This document shows, piece after piece, positions 26,476 to 27,989 of a stretch of 64,000 nt of DNA. The position numbers and the translations under genes were made by a program. The notes under the pieces were generated by a model that worked only from the letters and a program-made list of their open reading frames with translations, had not been told where the DNA came from and did not search any database. Origin of the DNA: Gemmatimonadales bacterium. GTDB lineage: Bacteria > Gemmatimonadota > Gemmatimonadetes > Gemmatimonadales > GWC2-71-9. How positions within the stretch are numbered: the stretch's first letter is position 1; every line of letters begins with the position of its first letter. The stretch covers positions 1,542-65,541 of the forward strand of contig JAICQR010000001.1 of assembly GCA_025937755.1 (NCBI GenBank). The letters are read 5' to 3'.

Positions 26476-27570
26476 TCAGCTCTCCCGGACCGGTTGCCAG
26501 GCGCAGTCGTCATCCTCCACCAGCAGCTTGCGAATCACCGTGACCACCGGCTCCGCCTGCGTCAGCTGCTCCAGCACCAGCAGCGTATCTCCGCGGAATG
26601 CGATCACCGGCTGGGTCTCGCCCACCAGCGTGACTCGTGCATCGACACACGCCCGGGTCCGATCCGCCGACAGCAGGCTGGCGAACACCTCGGATTCGAT
26701 GGCATTGCCATCGAGAACCTGGTCGAAGTGCACCGTGACGATGCTCCCGTCCGAACGGCGGTGCAGGCCAAACAGCGCGCTGATCGCAGAGAACATTTCC
26801 GGGAAGGGCGTTGCCGGATCGGCCATCTTCTGCAGCGCTTCACGGGTCACTCCCTTGCGCCGGACAGCAGGAACCGTCACCTCGTCGACCGGTACACCGT
26901 CCGGGCCGGCCACCATGATTTCGCTGGTTCCGCTGAAGGCGACCAGCAGGCTGTCGCCCCACGCATCCACCCGTACCGCGTGGTGAATGCCGGCCAGAGG
27001 AGGTATCGCACGATAGGTGTCGGGAATGGGCAGGACTGGGCGCAGGATCGTGTCCGCCGTCCACTTGGTGAGTCCAGTCGCTTCATCCTGATTGGTGCCG
27101 GCCAGCCAGACGTCGAGACCAATCACCGCCGCATCGCGGACGATTGCCGCCGTCGAGATGCCGAAGAGCAACTCGTGCGATGGATCGAAAACGCTTATCC
27201 GATCCAGTTCGGCGTCCGAGACAGCGATCGTACCGTCCGGGCGTTCGATGACAGCGAACGGGCTGGCGAACTCTCCCGGGCCCTTCCCCTTGCCGCCGAA
27301 CATCCCCACCAGCCGGCCGTGGGCGTCGAAGTGGAGCACCCGCGCCTGCATGCCATCGGTGACCAGGTAGCCGCCGTCCGCCAGTGGCGACAGGTAATCC
27401 GGCTCGCCGAGGTAGATCGAGTCGTTCTCCTCCAGCACGACGCTGTCGCTGAACACCACGGTTGGTGGCGTCCCCTTCCCGACCGCGTCGCCGCCCGGCG
27501 CTCCGTCCCCGCTGCATGCGGCCGCCAGCACAACCAGCGCCGGCGGCCACAACCAGGATCGCCGCGTCAC
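26476..27570 (-). CDS. 6-bladed beta-propeller lipoprotein, paralog 2
   Basis: Start moved to GTG 27570 (VTRRSWLWPPALVVLAAACSG lipobox), which overlaps the mini-protein A stop as GTGA. FGGKGKGPGEFASPFAV. Confidence 0.7.
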   Translation of the reverse strand: MTRRSWLWPPALVVLAAACSGDGAPGGDAVGKGTPPTVVFSDSVVLEENDSIYLGEPDYLSPLADGGYLVTDGMQARVLHFDAHGRLVGMFGGKGKGPGEFASPFAVIERPDGTIAVSDAELDRISVFDPSHELLFGISTAAIVRDAAVIGLDVWLAGTNQDEATGLTKWTADTILRPVLPIPDTYRAIPPLAGIHHAVRVDAWGDSLLVAFSGTSEIMVAGPDGVPVDEVTVPAVRRKGVTREALQKMADPATPFPEMFSAISALFGLHRRSDGSIVTVHFDQVLDGNAIESEVFASLLSADRTRACVDARVTLVGETQPVIAFRGDTLLVLEQLTQAEPVVTVIRKLLVEDDDCAWQPVRES

Positions 27571-27755
27571 GGATTCATGTCCTCGTACGTGTACCTGAAG
27601 CAGGGGCACTGGAAGAAGTCTTTCCAGCAGTCGGCGGGGCAGCCGCCGCATGCGTCCCGCCAGAACCATTCACGCGGGGCGGGCACCGCCAGCGCCGGAC
27701 GAGCCAGCATCGTCAGCATGACGCCAAGCAGCAGGGCAGAGATGATTCGGGACAT
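27567..27755 (-). CDS. Secreted Cys/Trp-rich mini-protein A (62 aa)
   Basis: Sec signal MSRIISALLLGVMLTMLARPALA. AGGAGG SD 7 nt upstream of the ATG. Mature part VPAPREWFWRDACGGCPADCWKDFFQCPCFRYTYEDMNP (5 Cys). Paralogous to the neighbouring mini-protein B. Confidence 0.75.
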   Translation of the reverse strand: MSRIISALLLGVMLTMLARPALAVPAPREWFWRDACGGCPADCWKDFFQCPCFRYTYEDMNP

Positions 27756-27785
27756 TGGTGCCTCCTGTCGATGGCGACGGCCGGA

Positions 27786-27989
27786 TCAGACCGGGCCGGT
27801 TGGAGTGAAGATCGGAATCTTGATGGAGCACGGGCAGCAGATCGGCGGCGCGCTGCAGCGCGCCATGCACTTGCCATCCGAGTCTCGCCAGAAATAGAAG
27901 TCCCAGGTCGCCTCCTCGGCCGCCGCCGGGCGGGCGGCGAAGGACGAGACCAGCGCAAGCAGCAGGAAAGCGGAAAGTGAGCGGCGCAT
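27786..27989 (-). CDS. Secreted Cys/Trp-rich mini-protein B (67 aa)
   Basis: Sec signal MRRSLSAFLLLALVSSFAARPAAA. GAGGTGA SD 5 nt upstream of the ATG. Mature part EEATWDFYFWRDSDGKCMARCSAPPICCPCSIKIPIFTPTGPV (5 Cys). Confidence 0.75.
   Translation of the reverse strand: MRRSLSAFLLLALVSSFAARPAAAEEATWDFYFWRDSDGKCMARCSAPPICCPCSIKIPIFTPTGPV

Follow-up and report, generated by a model that had tools for sequence, protein, structure and literature searches.

A 64-kb stretch of DNA from a Gemmatimonadales bacterium (contig JAICQR010000001.1; the whole analysed stretch of 64,000 nucleotides is called the window below) contains two very small genes in tandem, which lie between the gene of a CxxC-containing lipoprotein and that of a beta-propeller lipoprotein. 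Both encode cysteine-rich proteins with a signal peptide, here referred to as mini-protein B (upstream gene) and mini-protein A (downstream gene). The locus raises the question of what two secreted proteins of some 40 residues do in the cell envelope, and whether they act together with the products of the flanking genes. Our data show that A and B are real genes of a new protein family that keeps the company of the same two lipoprotein genes. We put at roughly 45% the probability that they reside in the periplasm as disulfide-stabilized small subunits or ligands of the propeller and owe their folding to a dedicated oxidoreductase.

Mini-proteins A and B are encoded by real genes

An initial annotation, made from the sequence alone, described two tandem open reading frames (ORFs) at 27567-27989 with Sec signals ending in A-x-A, strong Shine-Dalgarno (SD) sites and alignable mature regions of about 40 residues. 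Both ORFs lie on the minus strand, coordinates and translations proved exact, and these features are all present. B consists of the signal peptide MRRSLSAFLLLALVSSFAARPAAA and a mature part of ~43 residues, with the core YFWRDSDGKCMARCSAPPICCPC followed by a hydrophobic, proline-rich tail; A has the signal peptide MSRIISALLLGVMLTMLARPALA and a mature part of ~39 residues with the core WFWRDACGGCPADCWKDFFQCPC. The SD site of A is AGGAGG, 5 nt upstream of the ATG, and that of B is GAGGTGA, 4 nt upstream. Both N-termini carry positive charge and a stretch of ~14 hydrophobic residues, and end in A-x-A (ARPALA in A, ARPAAA in B). Judged by eye from the sequences of A, B and ~30 homologues, the leaders are Sec type I signal peptides with a charged n-region, an h-region and A-x-A at -3/-1, and without a lipobox cysteine. 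Tat export, considered for the B-type leaders (MRR..., with an arginine in the c-region), is unlikely, as the family does not conserve the twin arginine and has short, hydrophobic leaders.

A and B align across FWRD...CPC with 11 identities in 23 positions (E 4e-5), above chance, which bears out the proposal that they are paralogues. The ratio of nonsynonymous to synonymous substitution rates (dN/dS), determined against three relatives, is 0.10-0.28 for A and 0.15-0.73 for B. The exact product of B has been gene-called on 14 independent public contigs and that of A on 15; the sole public name is 'hypothetical protein [Gemmatimonadales bacterium]', attached to a close relative of A. Because dN/dS is below 1 and the exact products are called on 14-15 public contigs, A and B are real genes under purifying selection. 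The window has 66% GC and many long spurious ORFs on both strands, which could favour the view that A and B are chance, unexpressed reading frames in GC-rich DNA. Against this stand the dN/dS values, a GC content at third codon positions of 0.85 in B, like that of real genes of the window, the SD sites and translational coupling, the constant position between the same two genes, and a Cys/Trp/Asp pattern that is kept in ~30 homologues at 23-40% identity. The comparative data effectively refute the chance reading, to which we assign a negligible probability.

A family of secreted four-cysteine proteins

Word-indexed searches retrieve close relatives only, with homologues of B at 70-99% identity. 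When 1.84 billion cluster representatives were searched exhaustively with a hidden Markov model (HMM) of the mature regions, 18 matches at E<1e-3 were obtained, 13 of which are further signal-peptide mini-proteins of 58-78 residues with the same core. A codon-pattern scan (in IUPAC code) of one genome per GTDB species, which detects x6-spaced members only, produced 111 matches, including 14 true members defined by a short ORF with signal peptide; an equivalent scan of JGI metagenomes adds six more true loci. Homologues with the Trp/Asp/Cys pattern expected from the initial annotation thus exist. None of the members from the two pattern scans comes from a cultured isolate. Thirteen of the 14 GTDB loci are in metagenome-assembled genomes (MAGs) of Gemmatimonadales, Gemmatimonadetes or Longimicrobiales. 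The remaining one, L040 (CAZWUX010000248.1), is a complete cassette with CxxC protein, two mini-proteins, propeller and P140 lipoprotein in a MAG labelled Anaerolineae, the sole match outside Gemmatimonadota, and could reflect mis-binning or horizontal transfer. In all, the family comprises ~30 divergent members, and all taxon-labelled ones but this one are from Gemmatimonadota MAGs.

Six of the HMM matches at E<1e-3 are unrelated repeat proteins and were rejected on architecture: the long Bacteroidota Ig-like 'W-x-W-Y...C-G-G' repeat proteins P0010-P0012 and P0014, the long low-complexity repeat protein P0008, and the long 'CPxGYFWHxxMGHCM' repeat protein P0016. P0016 is a 415-residue membrane protein with ~10 tandem 'CP-x-GYFWH-x2-MGHCM' repeats, each of which resembles YFWRD-x2-G-x-C-M-A of B; the likeness may be fortuitous, or the repeat may be a related beta-hairpin module with a disulfide bond.

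The alignment of 33 sequences with 23-40% identity defines the family core as aromatic-x-W-[RK]-D-x2-G-x-C-(P)-x2-C-x5-7-C-P-C. The aspartate, the first two cysteines and C-P-C are invariant, and the tryptophan is conserved in >90% of the sequences, at ~95%. The block W-x-F-x-F, named as conserved in the initial annotation, is specific to the clade of the window; the block shared by the family is aromatic-x-W-[RK]-D. Mature members have 30-48 residues, and signal peptides and C-terminal tails diverge freely around the fixed core. Loci with a single mini-protein gene are common (L024, L030, L071, L106, L116). The most variable part of the family alignment is the loop between C-x3-C and C-P-C, which may determine specificity or be a site of diversifying selection. 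The inter-cysteine loops of A (27600-27640) and B (27830-27860) are hypervariable even among close relatives, with variants such as WKDFFQ / WKAFYE / ALEFYD and SAPPIC / DARPLSC / SMRPRFC.

In line with the initial annotation, which recognized no named family, searches of Pfam-A and NCBIfam return no family for A and a single sub-threshold lipoprotein-signal artefact for B, with no match to NVEALA (PF14055); the mini-protein paralogues of the near-identical strain L001 likewise match no Pfam or NCBIfam family. A profile of the family against PDB sequences gives a best match of E 0.54, to a bare C-P-C motif only. The AlphaFold2 model of mature B, computed from a 19-sequence alignment, has three beta strands (residues 5-12, 18-22 and 31-36) and no helix (mean predicted local distance difference test score, pLDDT, 75.9). 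Its best Foldseek match in the PDB has E 7.8 and a template modelling score <0.3. A cysteine-stabilized alpha-beta (CS-alpha-beta) defensin fold, suggested by the cysteine spacing, was considered and set aside, as the model, which is of moderate confidence, places C-x3-C on the strand 18-22 without a helix. The family is new at the level of both sequence and fold.

Four invariant cysteines and a paired fifth

The initial annotation assigned a common five-cysteine core to both proteins. Four cysteines align between A and B and are invariant across the family (C-x3-C...C-P-C), whereas the fifth sits at different positions: in A it comes after the invariant aspartate (RD-A-C), and in B it directly precedes C-P-C (C-CPC). 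The odd count had been taken to imply a free thiol, a metal ligand or an unusual cross-link. As a property of the family this does not hold, since 17 of the 24 tabulated mature members have four cysteines, a few have six, and five are found only in the clade of the window. Within that clade the 5+5 arrangement occurs in all of the window, L001, L009, L029, L123, L125 and L127. The upstream type there is always C-CPC and the downstream type always RD-[AR]-C, in pairs that have diverged to ~40-80% identity. Every other mature protein of the window's cassette has an even cysteine count; apart from the lipobox cysteine, two cysteines are conserved in the propeller and two in P140.

The four invariant cysteines probably form two intramolecular disulfides in each mini-protein. 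As the extra cysteines are restricted to one clade and always occur in both partners together, an intermolecular disulfide between A and B is the simplest and most likely reading for this clade, better than a free thiol.

The mini-protein genes are part of a conserved cassette

Counted away from the divergent operon of an extracytoplasmic function (ECF) sigma factor, the minus-strand order in the window is a 55-residue ORF, a 388-residue protein, the CxxC lipoprotein, B, A, the propeller, P140 and three DUF5128-like paralogues (22425-26078). In tblastn searches and public gene calls, one subfamily of DUF5128 propellers adjoins the mini-protein gene or genes in all 19 cassettes whose flanks are covered, and the CxxC lipoprotein gene does so in 18 of 18. 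This three-way linkage spans Gemmatimonadales, Longimicrobiales (with a single mini-protein gene), an unplaced clade and the divergent loci L005 and L040, and it is kept in L071 and L106, where the gene order is permuted. The genes are also tightly coupled: the TGA stop of the CxxC gene lies inside the SD site of B, the propeller gene begins at a GTG that shares bases with the TGA of A (GTGA), and P140 starts 2 nt after the propeller stop. That the mini-protein genes always stand beside those of thioredoxin-like and propeller lipoproteins suggests a small cell-envelope complex of the mini-proteins and their neighbours.

L001, which is represented by a 2.9-Mb ENA contig, carries a second, divergent cassette (16444-19055, minus strand). 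It encodes a CxxC lipoprotein, two mini-proteins (YKWVDANHDCVSTC...CPC and WKWVDKNDDCKGTC...CPC), a propeller and a 142-residue protein, and is flanked by an extra propeller paralogue of 354 residues. The extra block is inserted where the window (22289-22425) and L123 run straight to the gene of a resistance-nodulation-division (RND) adaptor. As this cassette is absent from the window, cassette number varies between close strains.

The CxxC protein is a predicted thioredoxin-like lipoprotein

The CxxC lipoprotein has the lipobox LVAAC and the active-site motif YDPSACFSCG. Across its family the active site reads C-F-[STVKA]-C, without the usual proline, and the alignment contains no conserved proline at the position expected for the cis-proline. 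The protein has no NCBIfam match; no Pfam match was obtained at E up to 10 with five divergent members, nor any match in PDB sequence searches with the single sequence or the five-member profile.

An AlphaFold2 model from a 10-sequence alignment (pLDDT 64.6, predicted template modelling score 0.65) shows the topology beta-alpha-beta-alpha-beta...beta-beta-alpha, with the CxxC motif (residues 50-53) between beta1 (41-45) and alpha1 (57-66). Among the Foldseek PDB matches listed, the overwhelming majority are membrane-anchored extracytoplasmic thiol-disulfide oxidoreductases (FetE, StoA, ResA, TlpA, DsbE/DsbF, SdbA, Etrx1), with a few other thioredoxin-fold proteins; probabilities reach 0.99 and E values range from 2.5e-3 to 5e-2. 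The matches include TlpA in mixed disulfide with ScoI and with CoxB (4txo, 4txv). On the strength of this model we accept a predicted thioredoxin-like fold of the TlpA/ResA type for the CxxC lipoprotein.

The propeller and P140

The propeller, in the reading frame 26476-27669, matches DUF5128 (PF17170) with 26.4 bits at a cutoff of 22.9, and its orthologues in L123, L124 and L127 also match. Hallmarks of its subfamily are a lipobox, the conserved motif R-x-A-C-V-D and C-x-W near the C-terminus. The window encodes six propeller-like (lipo)proteins that are paralogous and have a GxGPGEF motif, all within 14 kb (22425-29655 and 35523-36560); four of the six match PF17170 at some level, and two of the paralogues score 30.1 and 24.5 bits. 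The propeller directly after the mini-proteins is the only one of the 'ACVD...C-x-W' subfamily.

P140 homologues follow the propeller in the window, both cassettes of L001, L005, L009, L029, L040, L116 and L123, and their alignment has invariant cysteines at positions 48 and 91. P140 has no Pfam match and no usable one in NCBIfam. Its C-terminal half (…PVLLVVNGIPL…MRVLLPYDP…AKNGMVVIATK) resembles the core of the plug domains of TonB-dependent receptors. All eight matches of the P140 profile in the PDB are to plug motifs of FepA, PirA and PfeA at the same place, with non-significant E values of 1.1-1.5.

The 388-residue protein at the head of the operon has no Pfam match of its own, and NCBIfam likewise gives nothing usable for it. 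Its position is conserved in the Gemmatimonadales clade, with tblastn matches of 49-98% identity at the same place in L001, L009, L016, L041, L089, L095 and L114.

Upstream control region and wider window

The pattern GCAAC-N16-GCATC has two matches in the window, at 29923-29948 and 29688-29713, both on the operon strand and both within a 370-nt divergent intergenic region. It is conserved at equivalent sites in L001, L009-L011, L095, L123 and L125-L127. In L125 (3253-3420, minus), L126 and L127 (1428-1610, minus), the 55-residue ORF between the two copies and its GCAAC-N16-GCATC motif have the opposite orientation with respect to their flanks. In the Gemmatimonadales clade the ECF operon is always located divergently upstream of the cassette, among others in L009, L016, L041, L089, L095, L114, L123, L125 and L127, and an ECF sigma gene is also found upstream in L005. 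Ten loci in all have the ECF operon in this position. A single copy of GGAAC-N17-CGTCT (29989-30015, plus) precedes the sigma factor gene, and both patterns are candidate ECF-type promoters on the basis of their sequence. Because this copy ends only 9 nt before the annotated GTG, the start of the sigma gene may be wrong or its mRNA leaderless; public calls range from 158 to 211 residues.

Further genes of the window lie outside the conserved cassette. These encode a secreted S8 subtilase (33141-34751, minus), 5 kb from the cassette, which in L123 adjoins the HEAT genes; a serine/threonine kinase with tetratricopeptide repeats (TPR) (41286-43721, minus); an Fe-S protein beside a multicopper oxidase (44241-46908, minus); and a tandem MdtB/MdtC-like RND pump with its adaptor (15016-22289, minus). 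Coordinates of the cassette and its control region are collected in Table 1.

Table 1 Features of the mini-protein cassette and the adjoining ECF operon, in window coordinates.
Feature	Position	Strand	Product or content	Basis or remark
P140 lipoprotein	26082-26474	minus	130 residues	
DUF5128-type six-bladed beta-propeller lipoprotein	26476-27570	minus	364 residues, GTG start	public gene call
Mini-protein gene A (downstream)	27567-27755	minus	62 residues	ORF and translation
Mini-protein gene B (upstream)	27786-27989	minus	67 residues	ORF and translation
CxxC lipoprotein	27994-28443	minus		publicly called start gives 140 residues (27994-28416)
388-residue secreted propeller-like paralogue	28489-29655	minus	first large operon gene	GxGPxEF motif, similarity to paralogues
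Upstream control region	29688-29948	minus	two GCAAC-N16-GCATC copies flanking the conserved 55-residue ORF	
55-residue ORF (MYQDVVTPRPCTTVVLKDSRGQPVG...)	29720-29887	minus	conserved, no signal peptide	between ECF sigma gene and operon
ECF sigma factor	30024-30560	plus		TIGR02937, 86.9 bits against a cutoff of 42.9
Putative single-pass anti-sigma factor	30557-31198	plus		position and topology only
TPR/HEAT-repeat protein	31198-32661	plus		HEAT_2 and YfiO matches

Proposed function of the mini-proteins

The reading that we prefer, at the probability of roughly 45% given above, can be set out as a sequence of steps. The Sec pathway would export A and B, and the mature proteins of ~40 residues would fold into a small beta-sheet in the periplasm, probably held together by two disulfides among C-x3-C and C-P-C. 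The TlpA/ResA-like CxxC lipoprotein probably oxidizes or isomerizes them. In the clade of the window, A and B would most likely be cross-linked as a disulfide heterodimer. The mini-proteins most likely then associate with the DUF5128 propeller lipoprotein, either as its small subunits or as tight-binding ligands, in a complex in which P140 may take part. The divergent pair of ECF sigma and anti-sigma factors appears to control the operon. We infer how the disulfides connect, that A and B are cross-linked and bind the propeller, in which redox direction the CxxC protein works, and that the ECF factor exerts control, and base the reading as a whole on the invariable three-way synteny, the overlapping or nearly overlapping stops and starts, the even cysteine counts and the precedent of the Mau system discussed below. 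A role as small subunit or ligand of the neighbouring propellers had been listed in the initial annotation, and of the roles named there it is the best supported, as the genes are adjacent in every locus examined and coupled by overlap in the window; the binding itself is deduced from this arrangement. For the other roles on that list, toxin or signal and metal or redox function, we find no evidence that specifically favours either.

Several observations weigh against this assignment. The contact between mini-proteins and propeller is deduced from gene context, and the model of the mini-protein is of moderate confidence (pLDDT 76), with a predicted rather than observed disulfide pairing. The model of the CxxC protein is mediocre in its pLDDT and Foldseek E values, and no sequence profile backs it. 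In diderm bacteria, proteins of the TlpA/ResA type usually act in reduction rather than in oxidation, and the atypical C-F-S-C active site leaves the redox direction of the CxxC lipoprotein ambiguous. The paired extra cysteines may stem from a single ancestral event, which makes their co-occurrence statistically weak. Within the available flanking sequence, the ECF link is not found in the Longimicrobiales loci, L040, L071, L110 and L116. Finally, the hypervariable inter-cysteine loop and the fast evolution of B (dN/dS up to 0.73) also fit a diversifying secreted effector.

Alternative explanations

Such an effector could be a two-peptide bacteriocin-like toxin or a signal, in which case the CxxC protein would be its disulfide catalyst, and the propeller and P140 would help with immunity, reception or export. 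In its favour, small disulfide-rich peptides occur here as a pair, cassette content differs between near-identical strains (the second cassette of L001), and an ECF link from a receptor would suit a signal; moreover, dedicated thiol-disulfide oxidoreductases are known from bacteriocin operons (bdbA/bdbB with sunA, for sublancin). We nevertheless consider this explanation improbable. The leaders are Sec signal peptides and not double-glycine leaders, no cassette encodes an exporter of the ABC, C39 or any other type or a way out across the outer membrane, and since Gemmatimonadota are diderm, Sec alone leaves the peptides in the periplasm. There is no small membrane immunity protein, single-copy loci are common, and the stop/start overlap with a lipoprotein gene suggests stoichiometric co-assembly over release. 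A metal-binding role, for example for Cu(I) or Zn, would instead make the four cysteines a metal site that the TlpA-like protein keeps reduced, with the propeller as recipient or partner. TlpA is known to keep the C-x3-C copper chaperone ScoI reduced, and its complexes with ScoI and CoxB are among the matches of the CxxC model. C-P-x-x-C and C-P-C in the family also resemble the familiar C-P-x-x-C-P of Sco and C-P-C of P1B-type ATPases, and weak, non-significant PDB matches of the mini-protein profile fall on the C-P-C of ferredoxin-thioredoxin reductase. However, a conserved histidine or methionine is absent, and the cysteine count per locus is strictly even, including the six-cysteine members and the co-gained 5+5, which fits disulfides but not a fixed Cys4 site. 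The neighbouring RND pumps are of a generic multidrug type, not Cus/Czc, the multicopper oxidase of the window is 17 kb distant and unlinked, and no cassette contains a metal-related gene, so that this role, too, is unlikely.

Less probable still is that the mini-proteins are substrate- or cofactor-bearing small subunits of a propeller enzyme, in which Trp, Asp and Cys would be cross-linked or oxidized in the manner of tryptophan tryptophylquinone (TTQ) in methylamine dehydrogenase, or of cysteine tryptophylquinone (CTQ) and Cys-Asp thioethers in quinohemoprotein amine dehydrogenase, as a new redox enzyme or a product like a ribosomally synthesized and post-translationally modified peptide. 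The conserved Trp and Asp beside cysteines, the parallel to MauA/MauB/MauD in the combination of a small cysteine-rich protein, a beta-propeller and a CxxC thioredoxin-fold protein, and weak NCBIfam matches of the paralogous propellers to ScyF, an NHL protein of a periplasmic pigment pathway, are consistent with it. Against it, a scan of all cassette genes found no MauG-like di-haem peroxidase, MauE, radical S-adenosylmethionine (radical-SAM) enzyme (QhpD) or flavoprotein (QhpG), a protein of ~40 residues with a single invariant Trp cannot form TTQ, which needs two, and the propeller is from a large family of paralogous lipoproteins (six in the window) that look more like binding modules than like a dedicated enzyme. 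We also considered a new kind of self-contained envelope signalling module, in which A and B would be a disulfide-linked two-peptide ligand that the cell makes itself, that its thioredoxin-like lipoprotein oxidizes, and that the propeller and its plug-like partner capture. The state of the complex, such as redox or thiol stress or peptide occupancy, would then be passed on by the single-pass anti-sigma factor to the ECF sigma factor that drives the operon; this reading is as doubtful as those of an effector and of a metal site. A new protein-derived cross-link in the Trp/Asp/Cys core, formed with neither MauG nor radical-SAM enzymes, is less likely than the signalling module.

Relation to known systems

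The closest parallels to small subunits of the propeller with a dedicated oxidoreductase are found in two known systems. The large subunit of methylamine dehydrogenase is a beta-propeller, and the Mau cluster, like our cassette, combines it with a small cysteine-rich protein with a signal peptide and a CxxC thioredoxin-fold protein that is needed for the disulfides of the small protein. The CxxC protein and the adjacent DUF5128 propeller correspond to this layout by analogy, and we do not claim that they are homologous to MauD and MauB. The two systems share no sequence similarity. MauA has ~130 residues, 12 cysteines and a TTQ formed from two Trp by MauG, whereas the mini-proteins have ~40 mature residues (30-48), four conserved cysteines and one invariant Trp. 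The Mau propeller is a seven-bladed dehydrogenase subunit and that of the cassette a six-bladed lipoprotein of the DUF5128/NHL type. MauG and MauE were not found in any cassette or flanking gene scanned. Quinohemoprotein amine dehydrogenase, whose operon encodes the radical-SAM enzyme QhpD, the protease QhpE and the flavoprotein QhpG, offers a further comparison, but the cassette has no radical-SAM or flavoprotein gene, and the S8 protease lies outside it, 5 kb away.

The second parallel is the class of TlpA, ResA, CcmG, StoA and SdbA, to which the CxxC lipoprotein is similar in predicted fold, in membrane anchoring and in a client with C-x3-C, as in the TlpA-ScoI pair. It differs in having no sequence-level match to that class, no usual active-site proline and no conserved cis-proline, and in that its putative client is a new family, whereas clients of the TlpA class are ScoI, CoxB and apocytochrome c. 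By analogy, the cassette would work most like the MauA/MauB/MauD triad and the TlpA-client pairs; it is a member of neither, as the defining features of both were tested and failed.

Other resemblances are more distant. The partner propeller and its five paralogues in the window are members of DUF5128 or similar to it. Lipoproteins of this family form paralogous arrays in Bacteroidota, often interspersed with small 'NVEALA' proteins. Propeller arrays with small secreted proteins are arranged in a similar way in both groups, although the mini-proteins do not match PF14055. CS-alpha-beta defensins, including the defensin-like peptides of bacteria, share C-x3-C...C-x-C, two or more disulfides and the format of a secreted peptide of ~40 residues, but the mini-proteins have no helix in the model, no sequence or Foldseek match to any defensin or toxin, and only 5-7 residues between the two motifs. 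Operons of the sublancin type and of class IIb bacteriocins likewise encode small, paired cysteine-containing peptides with a dedicated thiol-disulfide oxidoreductase. Here, in contrast, the producer is diderm and there is no glycosyltransferase, and ~25 cassettes contain no double-glycine leader, ABC/C39 transporter or immunity gene. In the library searched, no paper was found on DUF5128, NVEALA or cysteine-rich small proteins of Gemmatimonadota, and the term '6-bladed beta-propeller' gave one match, a gene-table entry only.

Implications

Our analysis defines a family of secreted four-cysteine mini-proteins and a cassette that combines one or two of them with a thioredoxin-like lipoprotein, a DUF5128 propeller and often a 130-residue lipoprotein. 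Its likely logic, in which a disulfide-rich small subunit in the periplasm has its own oxidoreductase and pairs with a propeller, is a variation on a known theme. The practical impact of the finding is modest at present. It concerns Gemmatimonadota, a phylum that is widespread in soil and whose envelope has hardly been studied by experiment, and offers a test case for substrate-dedicated disulfide catalysis in the periplasm. It also gives a first contextual lead for the DUF5128 propellers, whose paralogues stand in large arrays both in the window and in Bacteroidota. Should the mini-proteins prove to be obligate small subunits, partners of many 'orphan' propeller lipoproteins may have been overlooked, because such tiny genes are called only 'hypothetical protein' or skipped.

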